A DNA stretch of 64,000 nt, taken from positions 7,964 through 71,963 of the forward strand of contig CAIOTC010000003.1 in the NCBI GenBank assembly GCA_903861205.1, in the 5' to 3' direction. This DNA comes from an uncultured bacterium. GTDB lineage: Bacteria; Patescibacteriota; Minisyncoccia; Phycocordibacterales; DATDWN01. The notes beneath the pieces are model-generated. The model saw nothing but the letters and a program-made list of their open reading frames with translations, searched no databases and was not told the DNA's origin. This document shows positions 19,031-64,000 of the stretch, in pieces (positions within the stretch are counted from its first letter, which is position 1; each line of letters begins with the position of its first letter). The position numbers and the translations under genes are program-made.

Positions 19031-19033
19031 AAA

Positions 19034-19422
19034 TGTGGAAGTGCCGACATTGAAGTCGGATGCAAAGAAAGAATTGAAATGGGTCTACAACGCTTAGTTT
19101 GTTTCAGGTTTTAGATCTTGCAGCTATAAAACAAACAAAACACTGCAAAATCGAGTCTCTATTTTTTAGAAAATTTTATGAGACAATAAAATTTTCGAAT
19201 CCGAATTTATTAGAACTACGTATCCCTATCGGATGTTGGGAAGGTAATCCTTTCTTACGCTCTCGCGTAGGAAAAAGCGAAATTGTTTGCCGTAAAATAC
19301 GGAGAAACAGTTGCTCGTTTAGTTAAGTTGTTTACACTTAGCTTTCCGGACTGTTTTAGAAGGATCCGGTACTTCGCGTCGCGCATGACAATGTGCAATC
19401 TATGTCAAAACCTGTCACCCCC
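19034..19422 (-). ncRNA. ssrA: tmRNA (SsrA), ~387 nt; proposed tag ANNFAFSYARA
   Basis: - strand 5' GGGGGUGACAGGUUUUGACAUAG...; 3' T-arm CCGACUUCAAUGUCGG; acceptor CACUUCC pairs with GGGGGUG including G3:U70; resume GCA at 19290, stop UAA at 19257-19255; immediately downstream of smpB. Confidence 0.7.
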
Positions 19423-51517: not shown

Positions 51518-52468
51518 ATGGCCGACGCAAAAAAACCAGACAAAAAAGATGCCAAGCCGGCGACGGCGAAAAGCGATCCGTTTGCGGAAATTGTGACGTG
51601 GATTTTTTTGGCTTTTCTGGCCATGTATATGATCAACGGTTTTGCGCAAATGTTTTCAAACGGGACGTTTTCTCACGGTTGGCAGGGACTCACTCCGCAT
51701 GGCATTATCGCGGCGCATACCCAACCGGTTTCTTTTCTAGAAAATCCCATTGGTACGCGGGTTGTTTCGATGAGCGACGACACTTCGGTTTACGATTCTC
51801 CAGGCGGAAAAGAAATCGGCACGCAACCGTTTAACTCTCGCGGCAAAATTTTGCAGGGTTATGTCGAAGTGAACGGCCAGAAATATTGGTACGTCGATTT
51901 CGACAATGGCAGTGACGGCTGGGTCAGGGAAAGCGACATCGCCAACTTGCAAAGTGAGCCGACGATGTTTGAAAAAATTTTGCTGTGGGGTTGGTCCGTC
52001 ATTCCGTCCGTCAAAATATTTTCCGTGCTTTTTTCTCTGGCGCTCATGTTGTTTGCGGCGTACGTCGTCGTGAAATTGACTGAGATCAGAAAAAATCAGC
52101 ACGCCCTTTTGTATCCCGCTTCCGCCGAATCGGCCGGAGAAAACATCGGGATTGTCAATCCGAAATGGGAAAAAATTCTGGCGCAGATCGAATCGCTGAA
52201 CGAAAACGACTGGAAGCTGGCTGTGATCGAAGCGGATACGATGCTCGCCGATATTTTGGACAAACTTCATTTGCCCGGCGAGACGATGGGGGACAAAATG
52301 AAAGCGGTGGAGAAAAGCGATTTTACGACCATCGACATGGCGTGGGAAGCGCACAAAATCCGCAACCAAATCGCCCACGAAGGCAGCGATTTCGTCCTAG
52401 TTCAGCGCGAAGCCCGCCGCGTCATCGCTCTCTACCAAGCCGTTTTCGAGGAGTTTCAGATAATTTGA
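51518..52468 (+). CDS. Two-TM protein with an extracytoplasmic SH3-like segment and a C-terminal HEPN-like (HepT/DUF86-type RNxxAHEx) domain
   Basis: TM1 ~res 25-45, TM2 ~165-190; C-terminal AWEAHKIRNQIAHEG resembles the HepT Rx4HxY motif. Confidence 0.4.
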   Translation: MADAKKPDKKDAKPATAKSDPFAEIVTWIFLAFLAMYMINGFAQMFSNGTFSHGWQGLTPHGIIAAHTQPVSFLENPIGTRVVSMSDDTSVYDSPGGKEIGTQPFNSRGKILQGYVEVNGQKYWYVDFDNGSDGWVRESDIANLQSEPTMFEKILLWGWSVIPSVKIFSVLFSLALMLFAAYVVVKLTEIRKNQHALLYPASAESAGENIGIVNPKWEKILAQIESLNENDWKLAVIEADTMLADILDKLHLPGETMGDKMKAVEKSDFTTIDMAWEAHKIRNQIAHEGSDFVLVQREARRVIALYQAVFEEFQII

Positions 52469-52604
52469 ACACGTAATTTGAACACGAAAAGTGGATAATT
52501 CGAGTTGATTTTGACGTTAAAGTATGATAGCATTCGTCCACAGCGGGATAGAGTAGCAGTAACTCGCGGGGCCCATAACCCTGAAACTCACGTGCAAGTC
52601 GTGA

Positions 52605-52661
52605 TCCCGCAACAAGTATGAAAAAACACCCATAATGGGTGTTTTTTCATACTTGTTGCGG
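52605..52661. other. Perfect 26-bp-stem hairpin (cccgcaacaagtatgaaaaaacaccc-ataat-gggtgttttttcatacttgttgcggg)
   Basis: Read directly; lies between the HEPN-like gene and tRNA-Met. Confidence 0.4.
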
Positions 52662-52707
52662 GATAGCGCTTGTTTTTATTCACTTGTTATATTATATTGT
52701 TTGTGCA

Positions 52708-52778
52708 GCCGGCGTAGTTCAATGGTAGAACGGGGGACTCATAAGCCTCAAAAAATGGTTCAATTCCATTCGCCGGCA
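52708..52778 (+). tRNA. tRNA-Met/Ile2 (anticodon CAU)
   Basis: Acceptor GCCGGCG/CGCCGGC, D-arm GTTCAATGGTAGAAC, anticodon loop CTCATAA, T-arm AATGGTTCAATTCCATT. Confidence 0.7.
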
Positions 52779-52809
52779 CAAATTTATTTTCTAGTTTAGT
52801 GTGTGAATT

Positions 52810-53529
52810 GTGGATAACCAGTTAGTCAAATACCCTGTCACTATGTATAATATTATCGTGTATTCATATAAAAAAGTAAATAAAAATTTTTTCAAAAAAT
52901 GGTCATTTGAAATGGCATACGTTTTGGGATTTTTTGCTGCAGACGGATATATTACTGTAAATAGACGTGGAGGGCAGTTTTGGTGCTTTGATATTGGAGA
53001 CGAAAAATTAATAAAACAAATCAGAAAAACTATTAAATCTACCCACAAAATTAGCACAAGAAAAAGAAGTGATGGAAAGTATACAACTTATCGTTTGCAG
53101 ATTGGTAGCTCGGAAATGTGCGATGATTTACGTAGATTGGGTTTCAGCGAATGTAAAACAAACAACTTAGCTATACCGTACATTCCAAAAAAATATTTTT
53201 CTGATTTTGTAAGAGGGTATTTTGATGGTGATGGGCATGTGTGGGTTGCATATATAAACAAAAATAGAAAAAAACAAACTTTAGTAATTAATACTGGTTT
53301 TACATCGTGTTCCCTTAAGTTTCTTGAAGCACTTAATGATAGACTTGAAGTTTTTAATTCAGGTAAAGGTACAATAAGACAGGGAAATGGAAATTCTTAC
53401 CGTTTGAATTTTAATATAACTGGCTCTTTGAATTTGTACAAATTTATGTATAATGGTATGGACGAGTCTGATTTGTTTTTAAGCAGAAAAAAAGTAGTTT
53501 TCGAAAAGTTTATAAAAATGCGGTTGTAG
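52810..53529 (+). CDS. Free-standing double-motif LAGLIDADG homing endonuclease
   Basis: Two LAGLIDADG motifs, LGFFAADGYI and RGYFDGDGHV; low GC; stop codon lies inside the first nucleotides of tRNA-Asp. Confidence 0.75.
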   Translation: MDNQLVKYPVTMYNIIVYSYKKVNKNFFKKWSFEMAYVLGFFAADGYITVNRRGGQFWCFDIGDEKLIKQIRKTIKSTHKISTRKRSDGKYTTYRLQIGSSEMCDDLRRLGFSECKTNNLAIPYIPKKYFSDFVRGYFDGDGHVWVAYINKNRKKQTLVINTGFTSCSLKFLEALNDRLEVFNSGKGTIRQGNGNSYRLNFNITGSLNLYKFMYNGMDESDLFLSRKKVVFEKFIKMRL

Positions 53530-53593
53530 CTCAACGGTAGAGCACCCGCCTGTCACGCGGGAGGCCGTGGGGTCAGCACCCATCAGCCGCGCA
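53520..53593 (+). tRNA. tRNA-Asp (anticodon GUC); atypical T-loop; 3' end overlapped by the integrase gene
   Basis: Acceptor GCGGTTG/CAGCCGC, D-arm GCTCAACGGTAGAGC, anticodon loop CTGTCAC; T-loop GTCAGCA is non-canonical. Confidence 0.6.
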
Positions 53594-55190
53594 ATATAAG
53601 ATTAATCTTGTCAAGGGACGCTTCAACGGCGTCTCCTTTGGCTTTTTTCAGTTCCCACTCTGATATAGCGGCCTCTACGACTTTTTTCTTTTTTGTAATC
53701 GGAATAAACCATTTCATGGTGTCAATACTGAGTTTTCCGTCGGTTAGCTTGCAGTTCCCACCCATACCTAAAAATACTTCTTTTTTAGTTTGAAGATCAC
53801 CTTTATCAAATTTTTCTTTCGCCTTGCAAGCAAAATTAAATGTCTTTTCTGCCAGTTCCTGCCAGCTATCTGTTCTGTGTTCTGTTTGTTTTACACTTTG
53901 TCGCAGTGAAATAATTTCACTTTTCAGTCTTCTTTTTTCTTTCAAAAATTCTTCGTCGTCAATTAGTCTTCTGTATCGCATTTGAGTCAATTGATCCATG
54001 TCACTTTGTGTGGCATCGAGTGTCTTCTGTTGAGATGTAGCAACTATTTTTCTGTCGTTGATTTCAACATCATTACTTTTTTTGATAATATCAATTGCCC
54101 AATCTTTGAACTGAGGAATAATAGTAATTTCCTCAAGTTTCGCTTTTATTTGTTTTTCAAGCGATCTTCCAGTAGTGTAATGATTTTGTCCGCACTTACT
54201 ACCTTTATTTCTTCGCATACAGTAGTAGTACTCAAAAGTGGCAATTTTACCTGTACTTTTTATTATCTTTTTCTTCTCGATGGCAGTTACACTACCCCCG
54301 CACTCGCCGCATTTAATAATGCCAGTAAAAGCATGTTCGTGTTTTTTAGGACGAGGTTTACCTTTCTTTCCAAGAATTATCTGAGCTTTATCGAATTCTT
54401 CTTTAGTTATCATTGGTTCATGACGACCCTCATACCACTCACCGCCATACTTGAACATTCCAGTGTAAAAAGCGTTTGAAAATAATTCAAATATACTGCT
54501 ACGGCCAATAGGGCCACCACCACTTCTTTTTGTCTTTCGTGTTCTTATTCCCCACGCATTATTCATGATTTCCAATATCTGTGTGGGGTTATACGCATCA
54601 GAAAGAAGCAAGTCCCAAGCTTTTCTCACTAAATCAAATCTCTCAGGATCTTTCTTTATGGAATTCTCTCCACGACTTTCAAATTTTGTGTTGAGGTAAC
54701 CTATGGGGGCAACGATAGGGGCCATGCCTTTTGCAAGTTTGCTATCAATTCCTCTTTTAACATTTCGCTTCATGTCTCTGATAAACTGATTTGAAGAAGC
54801 ATTTTCAACGCTAATAACCACAGCATTATCGTCTGGCAAATATTCTCGGTTCATCGTTTGAATTGATTTGATAACTTCTTTCTGTAGTAGCCACTGAATT
54901 GTGGCACTGTCTATTGGATTTCGTGAAAGGCGATTCATCTCCCAGCACAAAATTCCATTTGCCTCACCTCTATTGATTCTTTTTATCAGTTCGTCAAAAA
55001 CTTTTCGGACATACGGTTCTTTTGCTGATTTTGATTCAAATAAAATATCCACGATTTCTAAATCCTTCGCTTTGGCAAGAATTTTCAAGCGGTCTATTTG
55101 ATCGTCGATTGACTGTATCTGCCTGTCCGACGACTCGGAACTTTTGCGAGCATAAAGCAGATATTTAATTTTCTCAGTTGAATTTAACAT
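53583..55190 (-). CDS. Large serine recombinase (phage-type integrase)
   Basis: N-terminal resolvase catalytic domain YARKSSESSDRQIQSIDDQ, recombinase domain, zinc-ribbon/coiled-coil C-terminus; 535 aa. Confidence 0.9.
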   Translation of the reverse strand: MLNSTEKIKYLLYARKSSESSDRQIQSIDDQIDRLKILAKAKDLEIVDILFESKSAKEPYVRKVFDELIKRINRGEANGILCWEMNRLSRNPIDSATIQWLLQKEVIKSIQTMNREYLPDDNAVVISVENASSNQFIRDMKRNVKRGIDSKLAKGMAPIVAPIGYLNTKFESRGENSIKKDPERFDLVRKAWDLLLSDAYNPTQILEIMNNAWGIRTRKTKRSGGGPIGRSSIFELFSNAFYTGMFKYGGEWYEGRHEPMITKEEFDKAQIILGKKGKPRPKKHEHAFTGIIKCGECGGSVTAIEKKKIIKSTGKIATFEYYYCMRRNKGSKCGQNHYTTGRSLEKQIKAKLEEITIIPQFKDWAIDIIKKSNDVEINDRKIVATSQQKTLDATQSDMDQLTQMRYRRLIDDEEFLKEKRRLKSEIISLRQSVKQTEHRTDSWQELAEKTFNFACKAKEKFDKGDLQTKKEVFLGMGGNCKLTDGKLSIDTMKWFIPITKKKKVVEAAISEWELKKAKGDAVEASLDKINLILRG

Positions 55191-55264
55191 TTTGTTTTGT
55201 GGTTAATTATAGTTCCAATAAATGAATTTTGGTAGCTGTTAGGATGTTAATAAGAAGTTGATAA

Positions 55265-57703
55265 CTACCATGGCAAATCAATCTCTTCATCTCCAGACGA
55301 ATCTTCTACCGATGCGACGATGGTTTCGGCAGGGCTATTTTCTTTAAGTATATTTTCTTGTTCCTCTGATTCTGTCGGTGCATCGGTGCTAGGCATTTCA
55401 GCTTTAACTTCCATAGTTACACTTTCACCAGTCAAAGGGTTGTAAATATTTTCAATATTTTCTTCAGGATTATCTAGGATAAGATCTTCGATAGAAGGCA
55501 AGAAGGTATCGCCAGGTAGTTCCTTTGCTTCAAGCTTGAATTCGGCACCTTTTGGCCCTTTGCTGTCAGTCACAACAGTCGTATAGCCCTTCTTGCTGGC
55601 AGGCTTCATCCACTTTGCCACTGTGTCTCTGTCCCATCCCAACTTTTTTGCCAATTGAGTTATAGTGAAAGTCTCATCACTACTAGGTGGAAATCCATCA
55701 ACATCGTCTTCTGTGACAATTATGTGAGCCATTTCAATCAGCTCTATGGTTTTCTCAGGCAATTCATAAATTGACTTGGACAAAGAATCCTCAACTATTA
55801 TTTTTGCGATATAAGCATCAGCTAAAGTAGCTTTAATATATTTTTTGCCATACAACTCAATTTTCTCTCGTTGTTTCTGGTGCAAAAACGCCACTGATTC
55901 CACTATTGCAAGGAAGTGTCCATAATCTCGTCTCGTGCGAACAATATGGTTAGGAAAATATTTTCTGAAACTTTTAACAAATGGAATATAGACAGGCATT
56001 TCTTCCAAAACTAGCTGGGCATTTTGCCATGGCTTGATTTCCTCATCACTTATCGGCTGTCTGCCTGTGTAACGGGCATCGACAGATTCATAGACACGAC
56101 TAGTCTGTTCAGAGCTTTGATCTGGAAACATAGATATATTTCGTGTGTCATTTTCAGCGTGGATATATGAAGCTGTGGTAGTGGTAACGAAGCCTGTAGG
56201 GCCTTCCTTTTCTATTGTTTGTGCTTCAAACTGTCCAGTATCAGGATTTTTTATTGTAACCTGAATTTTCAGTTTGCCTTCAGATTGAAGTGTTCGAATG
56301 GCATAGTCTGCTCGTTCACCGCCATGTTTTTCAAATATAACAATTATTTTGTGCTTGAAATGATCTTCTTCGCAGTAGAAAAAACTCTGAGGTGTGGCAT
56401 CAGTCAAATCAATGTAAGCGGATTTTGGAAACAACTTTATCGTAGTGAGCAATGTATATGACTTGCCAGAAGAACTATCACCTTTGACTGTTGCCGAAAG
56501 TGGATTTTTCAATTTTCGTGAAGTGAAAATAATATAGTGAAGCAAAACATTTTTTTCTTCACCAACAACACCTAACTTTTTAACCATTTGAAGAATGTCA
56601 AAAAGTAGGGTGGGGGATTTCAGTATTTTTTCTGCAGTTTGTTTTTCTTCCTCTGTCATTTCAGGTTCTGTTTCAAGTTGCTCCGCTTTTTTCTTTGCTT
56701 CTGTAACTTTTAAAATAAAATTGTATTTCATTTTTCTGAAATGTTTGATAATCAAATTCACATCTTTCGGTTTAATATCCAATTCAGTTTTTACTTTGTT
56801 ACGAATATATATTTCCGCTTCTTCTAAACTATCGCCTGAAACTAGTATTTCAAACAGTGGTGTTAGCACATTCAAGATAGATTCTTTAGGTGTATCTTTT
56901 GGTATTCTGCTCAACACAAGATTACATTGTTCCATAACAGATTCACTTTTTACGGCTTCAGTGGGGTATTTTCTGACACTCTCAAAAATACTGCGAAGTT
57001 CTTTTTCTTCCAGAGGTTCAGGTAGTCTATTATTACGAGCCACGACTGAATCCCAACCCGCAGTGTTCCACAACTCAATAGGAAGCTCATGCAGTATCTT
57101 TCCTGTGTAGGAAGTCATAGCGTTGCTTCTTGAACCCTCGACTATTTCATCAGGTTCTTTTTGCCAAAGCTTTACATCTTTTTTATCATCTTGCTGTTTA
57201 TCAAATTCAGCTTTTAGCCATACTGGAATATCAGCAACTTCTGCATCATCTGGGCTAACCGTCCATTCATATCTATTGCCACTCAAATGTAATGATGGGG
57301 CGACTACTACATATCCACCGTCTGCCTTTACATCAATTCCTACACCAAAAAGTTGTCCATTTGTGCTTTTGATAAACTTGCCAGGATATTTGAAAAAGAA
57401 ATGTTCACCACCACCGCCTGTTCTAGAACAAACGGTAGGTGGAATTTGGAATTCTTTTGAACTTCTATTGTGTTTGGCATCAATGTCAAAAACAACTAAG
57501 CTGGAAACTTTGCCTGTTGCTATACCTATGTTGGCATCAGGATTGTTTTTCCATAATAATGCCAGTTCTTCATCAGAAGCAATTTCAGTCTGATATTTTT
57601 TCCAGTCACAGAGAGGGATTTTATTTTTGCCAACTGGAAAAGGACTCCAACCTATACTGCGGTAATAAAGTGCCCACTCAAGATTTGTTTTTGTATTATC
57701 CAT
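55265..57703 (-). CDS. Bifunctional primase-polymerase (AEP PrimPol N-domain) fused to a P-loop NTPase (D5/SF3-like) replication protein
   Basis: N-terminal ...VVFDIDAKH... (DxD) and LHLSGNRYEW; central Walker A GDSSSGKSYTL; 812 aa. Confidence 0.75.
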   Translation of the reverse strand: MDNTKTNLEWALYYRSIGWSPFPVGKNKIPLCDWKKYQTEIASDEELALLWKNNPDANIGIATGKVSSLVVFDIDAKHNRSSKEFQIPPTVCSRTGGGGEHFFFKYPGKFIKSTNGQLFGVGIDVKADGGYVVVAPSLHLSGNRYEWTVSPDDAEVADIPVWLKAEFDKQQDDKKDVKLWQKEPDEIVEGSRSNAMTSYTGKILHELPIELWNTAGWDSVVARNNRLPEPLEEKELRSIFESVRKYPTEAVKSESVMEQCNLVLSRIPKDTPKESILNVLTPLFEILVSGDSLEEAEIYIRNKVKTELDIKPKDVNLIIKHFRKMKYNFILKVTEAKKKAEQLETEPEMTEEEKQTAEKILKSPTLLFDILQMVKKLGVVGEEKNVLLHYIIFTSRKLKNPLSATVKGDSSSGKSYTLLTTIKLFPKSAYIDLTDATPQSFFYCEEDHFKHKIIVIFEKHGGERADYAIRTLQSEGKLKIQVTIKNPDTGQFEAQTIEKEGPTGFVTTTTASYIHAENDTRNISMFPDQSSEQTSRVYESVDARYTGRQPISDEEIKPWQNAQLVLEEMPVYIPFVKSFRKYFPNHIVRTRRDYGHFLAIVESVAFLHQKQREKIELYGKKYIKATLADAYIAKIIVEDSLSKSIYELPEKTIELIEMAHIIVTEDDVDGFPPSSDETFTITQLAKKLGWDRDTVAKWMKPASKKGYTTVVTDSKGPKGAEFKLEAKELPGDTFLPSIEDLILDNPEENIENIYNPLTGESVTMEVKAEMPSTDAPTESEEQENILKENSPAETIVASVEDSSGDEEIDLPW

Positions 57704-57859
57704 TGTTGTTTCGGTTATATTTTTTAATGTTGGTATTGCACATCTTTATTATTTTGTTAGGAATAAAGTTATTTTCTCGTGCAATGCGATTAAATTTTTT
57801 TAGTGACATCCAACTTGGGCCACTGTTTTCTACTCTTCTATAAAACTTCCTTAGGTTTG

Positions 57860-58156
57860 TCATATAATTTTGTTATTATGATTAACTATTAATTTTGGTT
57901 CTAAAACTTTTTCGTCACATGGTTTATCACACAAAAGCAACATAAAGCGGACGAGCTTCATGCCTTCTTGGCGAGCGTCTTCTACGCTTAGATCAATTCC
58001 AAAATGATCCTTGTAAAGGGCTTGGAATTTTGCTATGTCGCTGTCTGTGAGTTGAACCATGTTTTTGTTGATAATGTTTATAATTCGACTTTCATGGTTA
58101 GCTGGCATTTGCCAAATATGGAAGTCAAGTGGAAACAAATAGATTGTGGAAAGCAA
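57860..58156 (-). CDS. Hypothetical protein (element-encoded)
   Basis: 98 aa ORF in the same - strand operon as the primase. Confidence 0.3.
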   Translation of the reverse strand: MLSTIYLFPLDFHIWQMPANHESRIINIINKNMVQLTDSDIAKFQALYKDHFGIDLSVEDARQEGMKLVRFMLLLCDKPCDEKVLEPKLIVNHNNKII

Positions 58157-58305
58157 AAATACCGCTATGTTAAGCGGTATCCCTACTCTTCACTTTTTTG
58201 GTTTATTTTTTTTACTATTTCAATTCTGGAAAAATTTTTGAAATATTGTTGTATTAAGCCACAGAAAAAATCCAGAATTCAAAAACACTGGATTTTTTGA
58301 CTTTA

Positions 58306-58986
58306 TTAAATAATCATTTTGTAACCTATTCCTCTAACACTCTCAATTATTTCTGGAAATTCTGTGTAGCCAGTTGCCATTTTCAATTTTTCCTTCACTT
58401 CGTTCACAGCAGATTGCACAGCAGTTATCTGCCTTTTTGTTACTCCCTCTCTTTGATTTGGTCGTCCTTGTCCAAAGTCTCTCACATTTCTTATAGCTTC
58501 GTATAGTTCTTCGAAAGAAGTATCCTTTCCAAATTTCCTTTTCAAACACCGAAACACTGCGAGTTCATTTCCCCTGAAAGAAATTTCAGTAGGCAATCCT
58601 AAGTAAGTCAAAACTGTACTACCTTCATGATTTTGTTCTTCACCAAACAAGCATGACGATTCGTCAAAAGTTTTTTCAAAATACATTTTAAGTAGTTCCG
58701 TAGTGTATCCAGATATTTCAACATGTCCATTTTCAGATAGTGTCCATGAGGGTTCTGGGTTTGTTTCCGGTCTTATTTTTAGTACAACACCTTTTATTTC
58801 TGTCAGCATATGTATAACAAGCCATTGTGGTGTTTTTCTTGCAGTGTCAAAGTCAGTAGGGGAATTTGTTATAAGTGCAGGATCAAAATCAATAGATGTG
58901 TGAAATCCGTCGACTTCATGTACTCTCATTTCGATTAATTGTCGTGTGAACCATTTTAGCTGCTCACTAAAAATTTCAGTTACCAT
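58306..58986 (-). CDS. Putative regulator with a C-terminal OmpR/PhoB-type winged-helix (..ESVRGIGYKMI)
   Basis: C-terminal motif resembles the trans_reg_C terminus; N-domain unknown. Confidence 0.4.
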   Translation of the reverse strand: MVTEIFSEQLKWFTRQLIEMRVHEVDGFHTSIDFDPALITNSPTDFDTARKTPQWLVIHMLTEIKGVVLKIRPETNPEPSWTLSENGHVEISGYTTELLKMYFEKTFDESSCLFGEEQNHEGSTVLTYLGLPTEISFRGNELAVFRCLKRKFGKDTSFEELYEAIRNVRDFGQGRPNQREGVTKRQITAVQSAVNEVKEKLKMATGYTEFPEIIESVRGIGYKMII

Positions 58987-59013
58987 ATGAGGTTATTATA
59001 AAACAAACTTAAC

Positions 59014-59292
59014 TCAAATCATCATTGTGGCCATTAATAATAATATAGAAAGTAGAGGTGATACTAATAATATCAAAAAAATGGACGGGGTTTGTTTGCC
59101 ATTTTTTATAAAAATAGTTACTGAGTGAACGAAACTTGAAACTAGCACAACAACATAAACAAAAATAGTAAATGTCAAAATATTTCCAGAATCTCCAAAC
59201 ATAGTTAAAAATGTATGTATTAATGCAAAAGGTAGAATAAATTCTAAAACCAACAATACAATAGCAAGATTGTTGTCACTTCGTTTGATCAT
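59014..59292 (-). CDS. Small membrane protein (3 TM), holin-like by size only
   Basis: 92 aa, strongly hydrophobic. Confidence 0.35.
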   Translation of the reverse strand: MIKRSDNNLAIVLLVLEFILPFALIHTFLTMFGDSGNILTFTIFVYVVVLVSSFVHSVTIFIKNGKQTPSIFLILLVSPLLSILLLMATMMI

Positions 59293-59446
59293 AATTTGTT
59301 ATTTTTTTAAAGTTAAAGTTCGGATTTTTAATAACTCAATTATACAGCAGTTAACATCTTTTTTGTAATCCACAGTCGTATAACAGGTTTACACCCAAAT
59401 GAACTCATTGTGATATAATATATTTATTAAAAATTTCTAAAATAAT

Positions 59447-60607
59447 ATGGAACAAAACTATCAAAATGGTGAATCTCCTTTGCAACCCTTACAAACCACT
59501 CAACAAAACGATTTTTCAAATCAAACTTCACCACAATCTGATATTAAAATTCCAACGCACCCTACTGGTAAAAAGTACAGTAAATTTTTTGTAGTTATTC
59601 TAGCAGTTTTGTTGGTTGTAACCATAATAACTGCGGGAATTTTTGCTATGCAAAATAAAACTGTAAGTGAAAAATCTGTGACAAACATTTCTGACTGTCA
59701 AAAAACATCAGATGCAGGATCTTGTATTTTATCGTTTGCATTAAAACAAGCTGATCCATCAATATGCGGTGAATATTTTGTTGGTGAGAAAAAGGATATG
59801 TGTTTATCACAGGTTTCTGTTTTAAAAAAGGATTTGGCTACATGTCAGTTAGTTGACACATTACAATATAGACAGATTTGCTATCAACAAATTACTGGAA
59901 AAAATTTGACTGCCACTACATCTGTAACTCAAAATCCAAGTGATTGCACAAGCCTTACCAATCCAGCTGAACAATATTATTGTGTTGCAAAACAAGCTGA
60001 ATCAAAAAATAATCCAGCTCTATGCGACACAGTAACAACACAAAACTTTAAAGACAGATGTTACATGCAGGTTGCGGAAGATACAAAAAATTCACAATTA
60101 TGTGCCAAAGTTAGAACACCTGATAATAAAGATATTTGCTATAACGCCTTAGCCCAATTAACTAACGATTCTAAGTTATGTAATCAAATAAAAAATAATA
60201 CTGGAATGAAAGAAGGCTGTTTACAAATTTTTGAATTGAAGAAACCACAAGTTCCTTCGCTTGCTGTAACTATGGATTTGTCTATGGCAACTTTAACGGG
60301 TAAGGCGGGACAAACTGTTGATGTAACAGGAACTATAGAAAATTATTCTGGACAAACCGTATACCTTAATACCATGGGTGGATCATTAGGTTCGCCTGAT
60401 ATGGAATTGGACACTGCATACTTCTTTCAAGTTGTTCCTCGTATTTTCAAACAAGGGGATATATATAAAGGTACATTATTTTCAGTAAGTATTGGCAGTA
60501 ATGTTCAGCCTGGTAACTATCGGGTTAGTTTCTATTTCATGGGGGGAAAGGATATTTCTGGTTTTGATCAGTTAACAAAACAAAATCTCTCAATAACAGT
60601 ACAATAA
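59447..60607 (+). CDS. Membrane-anchored Cys-rich repeat surface protein with a C-terminal beta-rich domain
   Basis: N-terminus MEQNYQNGESPLQPLQTTQQNDF..., TM, ~8 Cys-pair repeats (C...D..CY). Confidence 0.5.
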   Translation: MEQNYQNGESPLQPLQTTQQNDFSNQTSPQSDIKIPTHPTGKKYSKFFVVILAVLLVVTIITAGIFAMQNKTVSEKSVTNISDCQKTSDAGSCILSFALKQADPSICGEYFVGEKKDMCLSQVSVLKKDLATCQLVDTLQYRQICYQQITGKNLTATTSVTQNPSDCTSLTNPAEQYYCVAKQAESKNNPALCDTVTTQNFKDRCYMQVAEDTKNSQLCAKVRTPDNKDICYNALAQLTNDSKLCNQIKNNTGMKEGCLQIFELKKPQVPSLAVTMDLSMATLTGKAGQTVDVTGTIENYSGQTVYLNTMGGSLGSPDMELDTAYFFQVVPRIFKQGDIYKGTLFSVSIGSNVQPGNYRVSFYFMGGKDISGFDQLTKQNLSITVQ

Positions 60608-60658
60608 ACAACTGTGATAAATAATACAATATTATCTTTAATTTAAAGTAAAAATACC

Positions 60659-62125
60659 ATGGAACCAAATAATACAAATAGCGAGTTTCCTTCACAACCT
60701 TTACAAACTACACCTCAGCCAGATTTTTTAAACCAAACTCAACCTTCTAAAAAATTATCAACAATATTTTTGTTGTTTATTATCATAATGGTTGTTGTGC
60801 TTGGTGGTGCTAGTGTTTTTGCATATCAAATATATCAAAAAAATAAAATTATTCCTGCTGTTCCTGTTAAAAATACAGTTGTTAATAATGTAGCGATTGC
60901 TTCAACAACTGGCATAACAATAAAATACATTGATGTTAAAGGTAAAATTTTAGAAGCTAAAAATGGACATTACTTATCTGGTGAAAATATTTACTCTTCA
61001 AATATAAATTTATTTTATGATGGAAATCCTATTTTGAATAAAACAATACTTGGTAAAGATAGTTATTTTGACAGTCAATCATTAAGTAGTAACGGTATGC
61101 ATTATGCTTTTGTTATGGCACATTATCCACATTATCCTATGATGCCACTGACAAATACCCACGATTTGTATATTGATGGCAAGAAAATAAAAGCTTTGCA
61201 TAGTCCTATAATTCCACTTGTTTCTGATACTGGTGAATTTGTAGAGGCAAACCTCAAGACTGCAAAGCAGTCTACTTTCCCATATTCTATGTCTAGTCCA
61301 AATGGACAACATAATGCGGATATAAAAAATGGGAATCTATTTATAGATGGTAAACCAATGTTATCGAGTACAACCACTATTATTAATATTAATCAATTGC
61401 AGATCACCGATTCTGGACATTATTTGCTATTTTTCTCTTACATTTACACATCAGACAAATACGGTAAAACATCTAAAACATCAGTTTATATTGATGGAAA
61501 AGAATATTCCTCAACAGGTTTCGTCTATGGCTACATAAATAATGATGCAACCCATCATCTTTTCTATAGTTCTAATAATGTGTGGGCATTGGATGACAAA
61601 CCTATAGATTTCCAAGGTGTTGCAATTCCTTATAATAAAATTAGTGACGCTCCTTTTGGAACAAGTCTAGTGGAAATGATAGACAATACAATTTATGTTT
61701 ACAAAGCAGATAAGACATACAATGTAGTTGATAAAATTCCTGAAATGCCTGCCAATACCGTTAATAGCTTAGATCAAAACATCAGTGTTATTCTGGATAA
61801 GGTTGATGGCATTGGAAGCAGAAATACAGCAATTCAGTTCAAAGGAAAAGTTGTAAATAATTCTGACTGGAAAGAAATTTATCTCAATGGTGCTGGTGGA
61901 AACACATCTAGTGGGGAACTAACCATGGACAACTCTCAGTTTTTTGTGTTGCCCCCAAAACTTGATCCTGGTCAAGTTATAACAGGGGAACTTTTTTCAA
62001 TTGCAGTTTCTCAAGTTGCTTTACCTGGTGACTATTCTGCAACTATGACTATTCAAGGTGGTACAAATCAAACGACCTATGACACGATGACTACTTCAGA
62101 TGTAACAATTAATATAAAACCATAG
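60659..62125 (+). CDS. Paralogous membrane-anchored surface protein (same cytoplasmic N-terminus and C-terminal domain, different ectodomain)
   Basis: MEPNNTNSEFPSQPLQTTPQPDF... parallels the 59447 gene; C-terminal ...GELFSIAVSQVALPGDYSATMTIQGG resembles ...GTLFSVSIGSNVQPGNYRVSFYFMGG. Confidence 0.5.
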   Translation: MEPNNTNSEFPSQPLQTTPQPDFLNQTQPSKKLSTIFLLFIIIMVVVLGGASVFAYQIYQKNKIIPAVPVKNTVVNNVAIASTTGITIKYIDVKGKILEAKNGHYLSGENIYSSNINLFYDGNPILNKTILGKDSYFDSQSLSSNGMHYAFVMAHYPHYPMMPLTNTHDLYIDGKKIKALHSPIIPLVSDTGEFVEANLKTAKQSTFPYSMSSPNGQHNADIKNGNLFIDGKPMLSSTTTIININQLQITDSGHYLLFFSYIYTSDKYGKTSKTSVYIDGKEYSSTGFVYGYINNDATHHLFYSSNNVWALDDKPIDFQGVAIPYNKISDAPFGTSLVEMIDNTIYVYKADKTYNVVDKIPEMPANTVNSLDQNISVILDKVDGIGSRNTAIQFKGKVVNNSDWKEIYLNGAGGNTSSGELTMDNSQFFVLPPKLDPGQVITGELFSIAVSQVALPGDYSATMTIQGGTNQTTYDTMTTSDVTINIKP

Positions 62126-62140
62126 TCATAAAATAAAAAT

Positions 62141-62398
62141 ATGTACAATTTTTTTGTTAATTTAGTAAAAGAGTTTTTTGCTCACCCATTCATTCTGATT
62201 TTATTTGTTCTTTTGATAGTAGGTATGTTTCTGTACACAAAGAATAAAAAACAAAAAACTAGTACCACCGTACGAGAATCATTAACAATGGTTGCCATAG
62301 GAGTATTGGTGTTTGTAGTCATTATTATATTGTTTATAAATTTTATTGGCGGAAGTTTTGAATGTAATGGTGGTAGTGGTTTTATATTTGCGTGTTAA
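62141..62398 (+). CDS. Small membrane protein
   Basis: 85 aa, 2 TM. Confidence 0.3.
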   Translation: MYNFFVNLVKEFFAHPFILILFVLLIVGMFLYTKNKKQKTSTTVRESLTMVAIGVLVFVVIIILFINFIGGSFECNGGSGFIFAC

Positions 62399-62409
62399 AC
62401 TTAAAAATA

Positions 62410-62717
62410 TGAAAAAAATTATCTTTTTCTTGGTGGGTTTGTTTTTACCAGTTGCTATTGAGGTGTATTTTTATTTTAATTTTCTTTCACCGAGTGTTTC
62501 TTCTATAGCATCACCACTAGTATTTACTTTTCTCGGAGTTCCACTAGCCGTTTTGTTTGTAGTACCCATTATTGTCGGTGCAATCATTATGAATTTATAC
62601 GGTTTTGCAAATAAACCAGTCGTTTATAGTTATTGGATTGGTGTAATTTTAGGAATATTATCCGTATATTTTGTATCTATACCAAATTTTATTTCTTTTC
62701 TGAAAATATACTTTTAA
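62410..62717 (+). CDS. Small membrane protein
   Basis: Start MKKIIFFLVGLFLPVAI; 3 TM. Confidence 0.35.
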
Positions 62718-62723
62718 TTATCC

Positions 62724-63269
62724 ATGACTAGTATTCAACAAAAAATAGTAGATGAAATTCTGGACGAATACAAAAACAAGGAACACATAATCGGTGTCCG
62801 TGTTTTTGGAAGTGTTGCTGTGGGTAAAGAAAGAAGTAATTCAGATGTTGATATCACCATCATTTTTGATGACGATAGAGAATGGGAATTATTCAAAGAA
62901 AATAAATATGGAATCGCTGTTGATTTTGAGATTGTTACAAAAAATATTTGGGAGATGATGTTGAAAGAGTATCCATATCTTTTTTACATAGAAAATAGCA
63001 AGATTGTTTTGGATAAGACAGGATTTGTAAAAGATGCGTTAAACAAAAGTAAAAAATATTTTGACGACAATCCTGAGGTTTATGATTTTTGGAAAAAGAA
63101 CTATGATCTGATGAGGGAATTAAAAGCGTCTGGAGAAAAACCTAAAAATTATATTGTAATTTGTGATGAAGCGGAAACCAGATTTTCAGATTATCACTCT
63201 GTTAAAAGGGACATCTTGACACCAGAATTTTTTCATAAACATACAAAAAAAATCAACCTAATGAATTGA
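62724..63269 (+). CDS. Minimal nucleotidyltransferase (Pol-beta superfamily; MNT/KNTase-like)
   Basis: GSVAVGKERSNSDVDITII = GS-x9-13-DxD NTase motif; 181 aa with a helical C-terminus. Confidence 0.6.
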   Translation: MTSIQQKIVDEILDEYKNKEHIIGVRVFGSVAVGKERSNSDVDITIIFDDDREWELFKENKYGIAVDFEIVTKNIWEMMLKEYPYLFYIENSKIVLDKTGFVKDALNKSKKYFDDNPEVYDFWKKNYDLMRELKASGEKPKNYIVICDEAETRFSDYHSVKRDILTPEFFHKHTKKINLMN

Positions 63270-63353
63270 TAGGGAGTTTGGAAGAGCTTCCATTTGTAAA
63301 TAAAGAAAAAAGGGCTGGCGGAATAATCACGCACAGCCCATTGAAATTCTTTT

Positions 63354-63554
63354 TTACTCCCAAACCAAACCATATTTCTTTCTGGCCTCGTCCACTTTCG
63401 CTAACTGGATTCGGATAGTGGCTCGCTTAATACACTCCATTAGCTCCTCCCAGTCCTGCCACGGAAATGTTTTGACTTTCACCATAGCAGACAGCACTTG
63501 CTCGTCGGTAGTGAGTGTCTGAATTTCAGATATGAATTTTTCTTTCACTCTCAT
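63354..63554 (-). CDS. Hypothetical small protein
   Basis: 66 aa ORF. Confidence 0.25.
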   Translation of the reverse strand: MRVKEKFISEIQTLTTDEQVLSAMVKVKTFPWQDWEELMECIKRATIRIQLAKVDEARKKYGLVWE

Positions 63555-63706
63555 TCCTTTCTACAGTCTATATTATCATACAAGATATAATAAAGTCAAT
63601 AGTGGGGTGTAGGGTGTTGTATTAGATTTGGTATATGAAGTTTATATCGAATGGAAGTGTATTGTTTGACATACCATTTCACATTTGATATGATATCGTC
63701 ATAAAT

Positions 63707-64000
63707 ATGAAATACAGAGAAATATTGTTAGAACAGCTCAAATCACAGCCATATTTCACTAAAAAGGTGGTATATCAGCTCAGTGAGCAGTATAAGCTTA
63801 AAAATACCACAGTTGACTCATATATCAGCCAGTCTTTGAAGCACAAGGATATTATTTCGCTCAGAAATGGACTATATATTTCTAACGATTTTTATAACAA
63901 AAACAAAGGCGATATTTCCTATTCTTTTTACCTTGCAAACATACTTCGTAAACCTTCGTACATAAGTTCGTGGACGGCTTTGCAGTATTACAACCTGGCG
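63707..64000 (+). CDS. AbiEi-like (type IV TA antitoxin / transcriptional regulator N-domain) protein, 5' partial
   Basis: Open frame from ATG 63707 to the window end (98 codons); ...SLRNGLYIS..., ...PSYISSWTALQYYNL resembles the AbiEi pattern. Confidence 0.4.
   Translation, partial: MKYREILLEQLKSQPYFTKKVVYQLSEQYKLKNTTVDSYISQSLKHKDIISLRNGLYISNDFYNKNKGDISYSFYLANILRKPSYISSWTALQYYNLA

Follow-up and report, generated by a model that had tools for sequence, protein, structure and literature searches.

We analyzed a stretch of 64,000 nucleotides (nt) from an uncultured bacterium of the Patescibacteriota (GenBank assembly GCA_903861205.1, contig CAIOTC010000003.1), which we call the window. Our subject is a gene in this window that almost certainly belongs to the LAGLIDADG homing endonucleases, and that lies between the genes for tRNA-Met and tRNA-Asp. 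An earlier sequence-only reading of the window had placed it at 52708-53593, an interval that corresponds to its open reading frame (ORF) plus both flanking tRNA genes. The features of the locus are as follows.

52708..52779, plus strand: tRNA-Met(CAT), found by ARAGORN and Rfam (64.8 bits); left boundary of the endonuclease cassette and presumed left homology arm
52820..52841, plus strand: conserved 22-mer AGTTAG-N9-CTGTCAC, a tRNA-Asp mimic that overlaps the endonuclease promoter
52823..52851, plus strand: promoter-like TAGTCA-17 nt-TATAAT, from the promoter scan
52858..53529, plus strand: LAGLIDADG ORF, with likely start GTG 52858, alternative starts ATG 52843 and GTG 52810, and stop codon TAG 53527-53529
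52924..52950, plus strand: LAGLIDADG motif 1, LGFFAADGY, with Asp34 invariant in the alignment
53212..53238, plus strand: LAGLIDADG motif 2, RGYFDGDGH, with Asp128 and Asp130 invariant in the alignment
53425..53454, plus strand: promoter-like 30-mer TCTTTGAATTTGTACAAATTTATGTATAAT inside the ORF, encoding S-L-N-L-Y-K-F-M-Y-N, whose end is 65 nt upstream of tRNA-Asp
53520..53592, plus strand: tRNA-Asp(GTC), found by ARAGORN and Rfam (58.8 bits), intron-less; right boundary of the cassette and presumed right homology arm

In a six-frame list of ORFs, one long plus-strand ORF extends over 52810..53529 and encodes 239 amino acids (aa) from the first GTG. Its product matches the Pfam family LAGLIDADG_3 (PF14528) in two stretches, with E=1.9e-13 and 50.9 bits against a cutoff of 22.5, and it matches LAGLIDADG_1 slightly under that family's cutoff. 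Each domain has a single LAGLIDADG helix with a conserved acidic residue at its end (D34 in the first motif; D128 and D130 in the second); 36 aligned sequences have these three aspartates without exception, and in 77 sequences their conservation is at least 90%. Modeled by AlphaFold2 with 36 homologues, the protein (predicted local distance difference test 87.7, predicted template modeling score 0.86) consists of two alpha-beta-beta-alpha-beta-beta-alpha domains. The best Foldseek matches of the model are I-AniI, I-HjeMI, I-Tsp061I and the bI3 maturase (E ~1e-10, template modeling scores ~0.6-0.68), with probability 1.00 for the first three. In sequence, these solved structures are distant, at 14-19% identity and E ~1e-4 in a profile search of the PDB. 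All four are monomers whose two domains each contribute a LAGLIDADG helix, as predicted here, and, unlike the present gene, all are intron-encoded. We are close to certain that the gene is a LAGLIDADG gene, and its best reading is a monomeric, two-domain, free-standing endonuclease. LAGLIDADG enzymes cleave DNA site-specifically, with sites of 18-22 bp and 4-nt 3' overhangs.

The gene has a G+C content of ~31% across the ORF, versus 43-50% in the host genes immediately upstream. An Rfam scan of 52400-53700 detected no group I intron and no family other than tRNAs, and the endonuclease gene is therefore free-standing in the window. We also considered that the ORF might lie inside a large intron, and rejected this idea, because the tRNA genes on either side are whole and the Rfam scan yielded no intron match. 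LAGLIDADG genes of phages share only ~30% identity and so give no sign of a recent phage origin, and a scan of viral contigs for the tRNA-Asp exon had no hits. The alignment of 77 homologues has 52 positions with at least 90% conservation, the motif aspartates among them, and the window protein matches the consensus at every one; judged by these residues, it does not look decayed. Among the 80 related loci introduced below, the ORF is uninterrupted in 79, and L075 alone is frameshifted.

The sequence-only reading had described a low-GC, free-standing gene for a double-LAGLIDADG endonuclease between tRNA-Met and tRNA-Asp, with its stop codon within the first nucleotides of tRNA-Asp, and had suggested a profile search and a check of relatives for pseudogenes. 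These points all hold: two motifs and a two-domain predicted fold are present, LAGLIDADG_3 scores above its cutoff, the Rfam scan is free of introns, relatives are almost uniformly intact, and the stop codon occupies tRNA-Asp positions 8-10.

Filled, empty and truncated sites in related genomes

To place the gene in context, we compared 200 related loci, designated here by L numbers, in two sets. The endonuclease-anchored set consists of 80 fetched loci and the window, and the structure of tRNA-Asp could be resolved in 72 loci. The exon-anchored set was collected by scanning metagenome contigs with a pattern for the tRNA-Asp 5' exon, blind to what lies upstream; it contains 120 loci, of which 92 are informative.

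The protein family is large. A protein search retrieved 2622 clusters at E<=0.001; the best 120 clusters have 56-74% identity to the window protein and lengths of 198-277 aa, mostly 203-250 aa. Relatives are encoded in at least 500 of 599 scanned stretches of species-representative genomes, and the family sits at the same tRNA position in at least 500 species genomes. The named hosts are nearly all metagenome-assembled genomes of the Parcubacteria/Paceibacteria type, the exceptions being two probable mis-binned contigs. The order tRNA-Met(CAT), endonuclease, tRNA-Asp(GTC) is found in nearly all of the 80 loci, often with two tRNA-Thr genes next.

The exon-anchored set gives a different view of the same site. 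An endonuclease gene or a remnant of one is present in 18 of the 92 informative loci, and the rest have tRNA-Met, a spacer of 21-100 nt and tRNA-Asp. Most exon-anchored loci are thus empty sites with an intron-less tRNA-Asp, and the cassette of ~740 nt stands in place of the usual spacer of 20-100 nt between the two tRNA genes. The borders of the cassette can be seen by comparing L017, which is filled and has an intron in tRNA-Asp, with L157, which is empty. Their flanks are 84% identical, and a 751-nt cassette in L017 corresponds to a 54-nt spacer in L157. Their homology breaks off precisely after the last (3') nucleotide of tRNA-Met, and starts again at position -1 of tRNA-Asp. The best reading of the two conserved tRNA genes is that they are natural homology arms.

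Decayed copies occur at this site as well. A profile search found remnants that are truncated at the 5' side and that always retain the C-terminal end (L108/L187, L116, L159, L177 and L189), and an earlier protein search had found a further one (L122). We considered whether ten spacers of intermediate length (325-765 nt) could be decayed endonuclease genes, and rejected this explanation, given that no homology to the family could be detected in them.

On a tree of the neighboring host gene gatA (Pfam Amidase), filled loci are scattered among empty ones, and the identity of GatA is nearly uncorrelated with that of the endonuclease (Spearman 0.10, 465 pairs). In reading these and subsequent results, it should be kept in mind that our trees are simple neighbor-joining trees with no support values, and that our association tests ignore kinship. 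We consider it very probable that the gene is, or until recently was, mobile at this site. Filled, empty and remnant alleles are together what one would expect of a homing element that goes through invasion, decay and loss. The sequence-only reading had raised the possibility of a selfish homing element aimed at the tRNA cluster, and had recommended a comparison of tRNA loci in relatives with and without the gene. This suggestion is borne out by the filled, empty and truncated alleles at one site, by their sporadic distribution on the gatA tree and by borders that coincide with tRNA edges.

Several observations on individual loci are listed here for completeness. When L017 (3650-4969) is compared with L157 (3282-3702), the entire tRNA-Met/tRNA-Met/tRNA-Asp block has the opposite orientation with respect to the flanking DNA. 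In L173, the 58-nt spacer upstream of tRNA-Asp reads ...GGTTAGGATAAGCAAGAATTGCCAATGCAGACGTAGCT, which looks as if the promoter and initial codons of the endonuclease gene had been joined directly to its final codons; from this resemblance, it is possible that the spacer is the scar of a near-complete deletion. In L100, L129, L034, L041 and L009 (also L050, L051 and L154), the initial 10 nt of tRNA-Asp contain, or are directly followed by, an insert of ~70-80 nt with a repeated TTGCGGnnGTA(GCT) on its two sides; such inserts could be scars of repair, or small mobile sequences that enter at this hot spot. Four endonuclease-free loci (L096, L164, L167 and L176) and L007 have a tRNA-Asp-like fragment of ~55 nt upstream of the real tRNA-Asp. 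It is composed of GCGnnCGTAGCTCAAC + TCAnnTnAGAnTATAGC + GAGCACCCGCC-CAG-GCGG, and is often in a tandem duplication that includes the promoter.

The tRNA-Asp intron and a candidate target

ARAGORN overlooked tRNA-Asp in about half of the endonuclease-anchored loci. In the intron-bearing genes, the 5' half of the tRNA stops at ...CCUGU, an insert of 194-260 nt follows, and the tRNA then continues with CAC.... The inserts contain no ORF, the 5' exon ends in U, a GCAG guide can pair with CUGU, the last base of the insert is G and there is a GAUAUAGUCC core. Rfam's RF00028 scores above its gathering cutoff in the inserts of L002, L018, L033 and L043. A group I intron is present between nt 35 and 36 of tRNA-Asp(GUC) in 36 of the 72 resolved endonuclease-anchored loci, and the window's tRNA-Asp is among the 36 intron-less copies. 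In the intron-bearing relatives, the endonuclease ORF is located upstream of exon 1, outside the intron. Because ARAGORN overlooks intron-containing genes, tRNA-Asp is often missing from annotations of Paceibacteria. Group I introns in tRNAs of the Candidate Phyla Radiation (CPR) are mentioned just in passing in previous work (PMC8172020).

The intron and the endonuclease are associated. In the exon-anchored set, the intron is found in 13 loci with an endonuclease or remnant and in 4 without, and the intron-less loci comprise 5 with an endonuclease and 70 without (odds ratio 45, p=7e-9, kinship ignored). Our profile search later shifted two loci between classes, which leaves the picture of endonuclease and intron unchanged. 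Each partner also occurs alone, e.g., the intron lacks any accompanying endonuclease in L113, L152 and L193, and this argues against an obligate maturase relationship.

Introns are not confined to tRNA-Asp. Additional group I introns, with Rfam scores of 68-81 bits, occur in L002 (3551-3769, minus strand), L026 (2836-3050, minus strand) and L042 (3510-3746, plus strand), at the usual place of the cluster's first CAT tRNA. Given this position, it follows that a second tRNA of the cluster has also been invaded by introns in some Paceibacteria.

The start of the endonuclease gene provides a further connection with tRNA-Asp. Homologues begin with M-P-x-Y-K-K-V-N-K, and the aligned position in the window is GTG 52858, which is most likely the real start, as judged from the alignment. 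Public gene calls instead begin at ATG 52843 and give 228 aa (P0001 is 100% identical); for this reason, an exact-sequence look-up of the 239-aa ORF returned no match. Across loci, the start codon comes 6-7 nt past a conserved TATAAT (TATAAT-N6-[AG]TG), and a promoter scan of the window calls TAGTCA-17 nt-TATAAT at 52823-52851, with consensus matches at 10 of 12 positions. This spacing suggests that the endonuclease mRNA is leaderless.

Of 81 endonuclease-bearing loci, 45 have a 22-mer, GGTTAG-N9-CTGTCAC, that overlaps this promoter and whose distance from the start codon is constant, and all 80 endonuclease-free spacers lack it; the window's copy reads AGTTAG-N9-CTGTCAC. The blocks of the 22-mer and their spacing are those of a part of tRNA-Asp, in which GGTTAG belongs to the D-loop and CTGT|CAC to the anticodon loop; the intron insertion point falls in the second of these blocks. 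Based on this resemblance, the 22-mer may be an operator or pseudo-target of the endonuclease, and a target-like operator at the gene's own promoter may provide autoregulation. Its sequence does not covary with the local tRNA-Asp allele. We also considered that the 22-mer might be what is left of a full tRNA-Asp 5' half. This was rejected because conservation is limited to the GGTTAG and CTGTCAC blocks, and no sequence resembling an acceptor stem or D-stem lies upstream of them.

The corresponding blocks were also compared within tRNA-Asp itself, with a perfect allele defined as one in which both GGTTAG and CTGTCAC are intact in the local tRNA-Asp. Among 90 endonuclease-bearing loci, the intron interrupts 29 of the 34 tRNA-Asp genes with perfect blocks, versus 20 of the 56 with imperfect blocks (odds ratio 10, p=4e-6, kinship ignored). 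The uninterrupted perfect site is present in 58 of 70 endonuclease-free, intron-less loci, a set whose search pattern favors this allele. In the window, the D-loop is two nt shorter (CAACGGTAGAGC vs CAACTGGTTAGAGC), the left block is CGGTAG and there is no intron. In nine endonuclease-bearing loci (L015, L032, L037, L060, L062, L067, L069, L073 and L080), one extra nucleotide follows GGTTAG (GGTTAGTAGC...), and all nine are intron-less.

Signals shared by the ORF and tRNA-Asp

The stop codon TAG at 53527-53529 consists of nt 8-10 of tRNA-Asp. Among the resolved loci, the stop is inside tRNA-Asp in 61 of 72, and is at U8-A9-G10 in 45. Because the stop falls inside the tRNA gene, the protein has a conserved C-terminus, ...K-M/L-R-x.

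Upstream of this overlap, the ORF contains a conserved peptide, S-L-K-L-Y-D-F-M-Y-N, with the coding sequence TCTTTGAAATTATAyGATTTTATGTATAAT. In this motif, Tyr is written TAT and Asn is written AAT in 73 of 73 homologues, compared with 75% and 80%, respectively, elsewhere in the same ORFs. This codon usage indicates nucleotide-level constraint on the motif's codons. Two endonuclease-free loci (L095 and L166) have the same 28-mer 8-10 nt upstream of tRNA-Asp. It also occurs 58-71 nt upstream of tRNA-Asp in the remnants L108, L187, L122 and L189, and at the same range of distances in L086 and L175, in which no endonuclease homology was detected. From its sequence and placement, the embedded element looks like a promoter for tRNA-Asp.

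If so, the cassette would displace the native spacer and promoter of tRNA-Asp, and would substitute a predicted promoter that lies inside its own ORF. A promoter embedded in the 3' part of the ORF would explain why the remnants keep residues from ~190 to the end. In organisms where tRNA-Asp is single-copy, the 3' end of the selfish gene would then be indispensable, hence undeletable. The overlap might have an additional effect, in that RNase P cleavage at 53520 would strip the stop codon from a read-through endonuclease mRNA. It is speculation that this loss limits expression of the endonuclease, and the transfer-messenger RNA (tmRNA) gene at 19033-19422 is relevant only to that idea.

Proposed mechanism, alternatives and surroundings

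We regard it as likely that the gene is part of a free-standing, two-domain LAGLIDADG homing cassette of Paceibacteria (CPR), which fills the spacer between tRNA-Met and tRNA-Asp and uses these tRNA genes as homology arms. The enzyme would cut endonuclease-free alleles inside tRNA-Asp, with the 22 bp GGTTAG-N9-CTGT|CAC being the likeliest location. Repair from a filled allele, with the tRNA genes as arms, would copy in the endonuclease gene and usually also the intron. Filled genomes would escape self-cleavage in one of two ways, i.e., by an intron that splits the site or by a differing D-loop in tRNA-Asp. The window would represent the second kind of escape, and its allele fits a model of cutting in the 22-bp region because it has the variant left block CGGTAG instead of GGTTAG and no intron.

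Our confidence in the parts of this mechanism varies. That the enzyme's target extends from the D-loop to the anticodon loop of tRNA-Asp, with the intron giving immunity, is a tentative proposal, which we find slightly easier to doubt than to accept. We are more hesitant about the idea of a three-part selfish CPR module, in which an endonuclease aimed at tRNA-Asp would be made undeletable by an embedded promoter and a tRNA-internal stop codon, possibly with an operator in addition; this combination is conceivable, and doubts about it predominate.

A number of observations weigh against the proposed mechanism. Five endonuclease-bearing, intron-less loci have perfect blocks (L044, L048, L056, L058 and L074). 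The exons of L001 and the window are identical or near-identical to those of intron-bearing relatives such as L002 and L029. The divergences of the endonuclease and of the intron correlate weakly (Spearman 0.28; Mantel test, 26 of 2000 permutations), which is also why we did not uphold the idea that the two form a tightly co-inherited unit. If exons were co-converted together with the intron, this could account for some of the allele pattern, and the location of the target is inferred from allele associations that ignore kinship. Finally, the predicted embedded promoter has a spacing of 15 nt between its -35 and -10 elements, and the generic promoter scan did not call it.

The main rival of cleavage inside tRNA-Asp is classical free-standing homing, in which the enzyme would cut at the junction between the spacer and the tRNA-Asp 5' end. 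Insertion of the cassette would destroy this site, and the intron, 34 nt away, would hitch-hike by co-conversion. This mechanism would account for the contact of the ORF with the tRNA 5' end in practically every locus, and it would leave endonuclease-bearing, intron-less genomes with standard exons (the window, L001 and L003) in need of no other protection. It is also consistent with the weak coupling of endonuclease and intron divergences, and with duplications and inserts of ~70 nt with a repeated TTGCGGnCGTA at the tRNA 5' end, which are possible repair scars (L009, L034, L041, L100 and L129). However, a target at the junction would have its upstream half in the spacer, which is not conserved between genomes. 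Moreover, cutting there leaves unexplained why perfect-block alleles of endonuclease-bearing genomes almost always have the intron in them (29/34 vs 20/56), and why the promoter of the endonuclease has a conserved mimic of tRNA-Asp. We consider it unlikely, while still deserving of serious attention.

Two other explanations assume that the protein is not a working homing enzyme. It could be an inactive relic, whose ORF is kept open only by a 3' end that carries the promoter and the 5' junction of an essential tRNA-Asp. The nucleotide-level constraint on the embedded promoter, and the fact that remnants keep exactly the promoter-bearing part, would be expected in this case; moreover, the intron-less window has near-standard exons, a dangerous situation if the enzyme were active on them. 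Yet this constraint applies to the last ~35 codons, and the whole ORF of 223-228 aa is open, with the consensus residue at 52 of 52 highly conserved positions, catalytic aspartates included. A relic is thus rather improbable.

Alternatively, the protein could be domesticated, with a host role as a maturase for the tRNA-Asp intron or as a DNA-binding regulator of the tRNA operon. The strong association with the intron, the strongly conserved protein with 79 of 80 ORFs intact, the operator-like 22-mer at the gene's own promoter, and structural neighbors that include the bifunctional I-AniI and the bI3 maturase are all compatible with such a role. A domesticated gene is difficult to reconcile with a presence in only ~20% of the tRNA-Asp loci sampled, scattered among empty ones on the host tree, or with truncated remnants. 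The invariant aspartates of both motifs also speak against it, and a maturase in particular is at odds with the loci that have the intron alone (L113, L152 and L193) or the endonuclease alone (36 of 72, including the window). We therefore view domestication as quite improbable; a bifunctional enzyme is possible.

The proposed logic resembles collaborative homing, of which two phage examples are the free-standing F-CphI with an ORF-less psbA group I intron in cyanophage S-PM2, and T4 mobE with the defunct I-TevIII intron (PMC3984707, PMC6083498, PMC2790892). In those systems as here, endonuclease and intron are linked (statistically so in our case), and the enzyme would cut the intron-less allele while the intron shields the donor. 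By contrast, the present enzyme is a LAGLIDADG protein rather than Endo VII-like or HNH, its setting is a bacterial chromosome rather than a phage, and its target would be a tRNA gene rather than a protein-coding gene. The ORF here also overlaps the target gene and carries its apparent promoter, the window's copy is intron-less, and the cleavage site is deduced from sequence.

A free-standing homing endonuclease among tRNA genes has a precedent in SegB, a GIY-YIG enzyme encoded in the tRNA cluster of phage T4, which reportedly drives preferential inheritance of the tRNA region. Like the cassette described here, SegB is located between tRNA genes, with conserved flanking genes as homology arms; it differs in being a GIY-YIG enzyme from a phage, with no intron partner and no overlap of ORF and tRNA. 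I-Ssp6803I, an enzyme referred to in PMC3984707, is encoded in a group I intron of the Synechocystis tRNA-fMet gene, is aimed at the tRNA's anticodon region and is of the PD-(D/E)XK type. In our family, the ORF is instead upstream of exon 1, and the intron is ORF-less. I-TevI is said to repress its own expression via an operator that resembles its homing site, and this is a possible analogy for the target-like 22-mer, which is known here from sequence and is associated with a different enzyme family. Mobile elements of T4 have been reviewed (PMC2988022).

Within the CPR, LAGLIDADG genes have been reported inside rRNA insertion sequences or introns, e.g., I-ShaI, in a study that makes no mention of tRNA or of free-standing copies (PMC11270868). 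Those genes and the present family come from the same radiation and superfamily, occur sporadically without following host phylogeny, and are associated with conserved genes for structural RNAs. The difference is that the present family is free-standing and occupies a tRNA spacer.

We found no prior description of this arrangement in the full-text literature, a coverage outside of which most subscription journals fall. New in this work are a large family specific to one site, its link to a tRNA-Asp group I intron, the interweaving of signals of the ORF and the tRNA, and a target-like element at the promoter. If the proposed mechanism is true, this would be, as far as we have found, the first case of collaborative homing in a bacterial chromosome and at a tRNA gene. 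As a hypothesis, it would extend collaborative homing from the two phage systems (PMC3984707) to bacterial chromosomes, tRNA genes and LAGLIDADG enzymes. It would likewise mean that a selfish gene holds the expression of an essential tRNA hostage, and a coding sequence that doubles as the likely promoter of this tRNA would be a concrete reason for the selfish gene's 3' end to resist deletion. The natural series of filled, empty, intron-only and truncated sites in hundreds of uncultivated genomes makes the life cycle of endonuclease and intron readable. In addition, the family is a large pool of compact (~205-230 aa), predicted monomeric meganucleases with a candidate 22-bp target, and may interest enzyme engineers.

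The remaining features of the window lie outside of the endonuclease cassette.

19033..19422, minus strand: tmRNA gene (Rfam, 74 bits)
52542..52613, plus strand: initiator-like tRNA(CAT), found by ARAGORN and Rfam (tRNA, 44.7 bits); the first tRNA of the cluster, given for context
53583..55190, minus strand: large serine recombinase (Pfam Resolvase, Recombinase and Zn_ribbon_recom)
55265..57703, minus strand: Prim-Pol/PriCT protein (Pfam PF09250, E=7.8e-29), in the same island as the recombinase

The serine recombinase overlaps the 3' end of tRNA-Asp by ~10 nt, and its match to the NCBIfam model for XisF/CcrB-like proteins is under the cutoff. It is followed by the Prim-Pol/PriCT protein of 812 aa and several downstream ORFs without a Pfam match, and low G+C content continues from the recombinase to the end of the window (64000). 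Recombinase homologues are convergent to tRNA-Asp and abut its 3' end in L104 (73% aa identity), L055, L137, L136 and L013, and because of these five other loci, we take the tRNA-Asp 3' end to be a recurrent integration site. A repeat of this 3' end, which would mark the other attachment end, was not found within 53593-64000; the island's far end is beyond the window.

The sequence-only reading was thus correct in placing the endonuclease beside an integrated element, while its suggestion that the endonuclease helps to mobilize the island did not stand up. It is hardly credible that the gene belongs to the island or serves it, e.g., by making breaks that aid its movement: the two are side by side with low G+C content, and three loci with this recombinase next to tRNA-Asp also have the endonuclease (L104, L055 and L013), but the recombinase is found in 5 of 200 loci, ~95% of endonuclease-bearing loci are without it, and the two genes are on opposite sides of tRNA-Asp. 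The island moreover has its own recombinase, and serine recombinases, to our knowledge, need no accessory endonuclease. Island and endonuclease look like independent elements that use one tRNA.

Some minor observations concern the tRNA genes and their surroundings. The tRNA at 52542-52613 is called initiator-like because inspection of its sequence reveals an A1/A72 mismatch and a GGG/CCC anticodon stem. Its last 10 nt are taken in by the left arm of a perfect 30-bp inverted repeat with a 1-nt loop (52604-52664), a segment that is 90% conserved in L121 and could be a terminator or a recombination site. The T-loop of tRNA-Asp (53568-53574) is GTCAGCA, without the canonical T54 and A58. This odd T-arm, GTGGGGTCAGCACCCAT, is common to a clade of relatives with and without the intron (e.g., L001, L002, L003, L011, L017, L026, L028 and L029), and because it recurs across the whole clade, the tRNA is probably functional. 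Just past tRNA-Asp, on the plus strand at 53615-53635, there is a terminator-like hairpin followed by a run of T, inside the coding sequence of the recombinase on the opposite strand.

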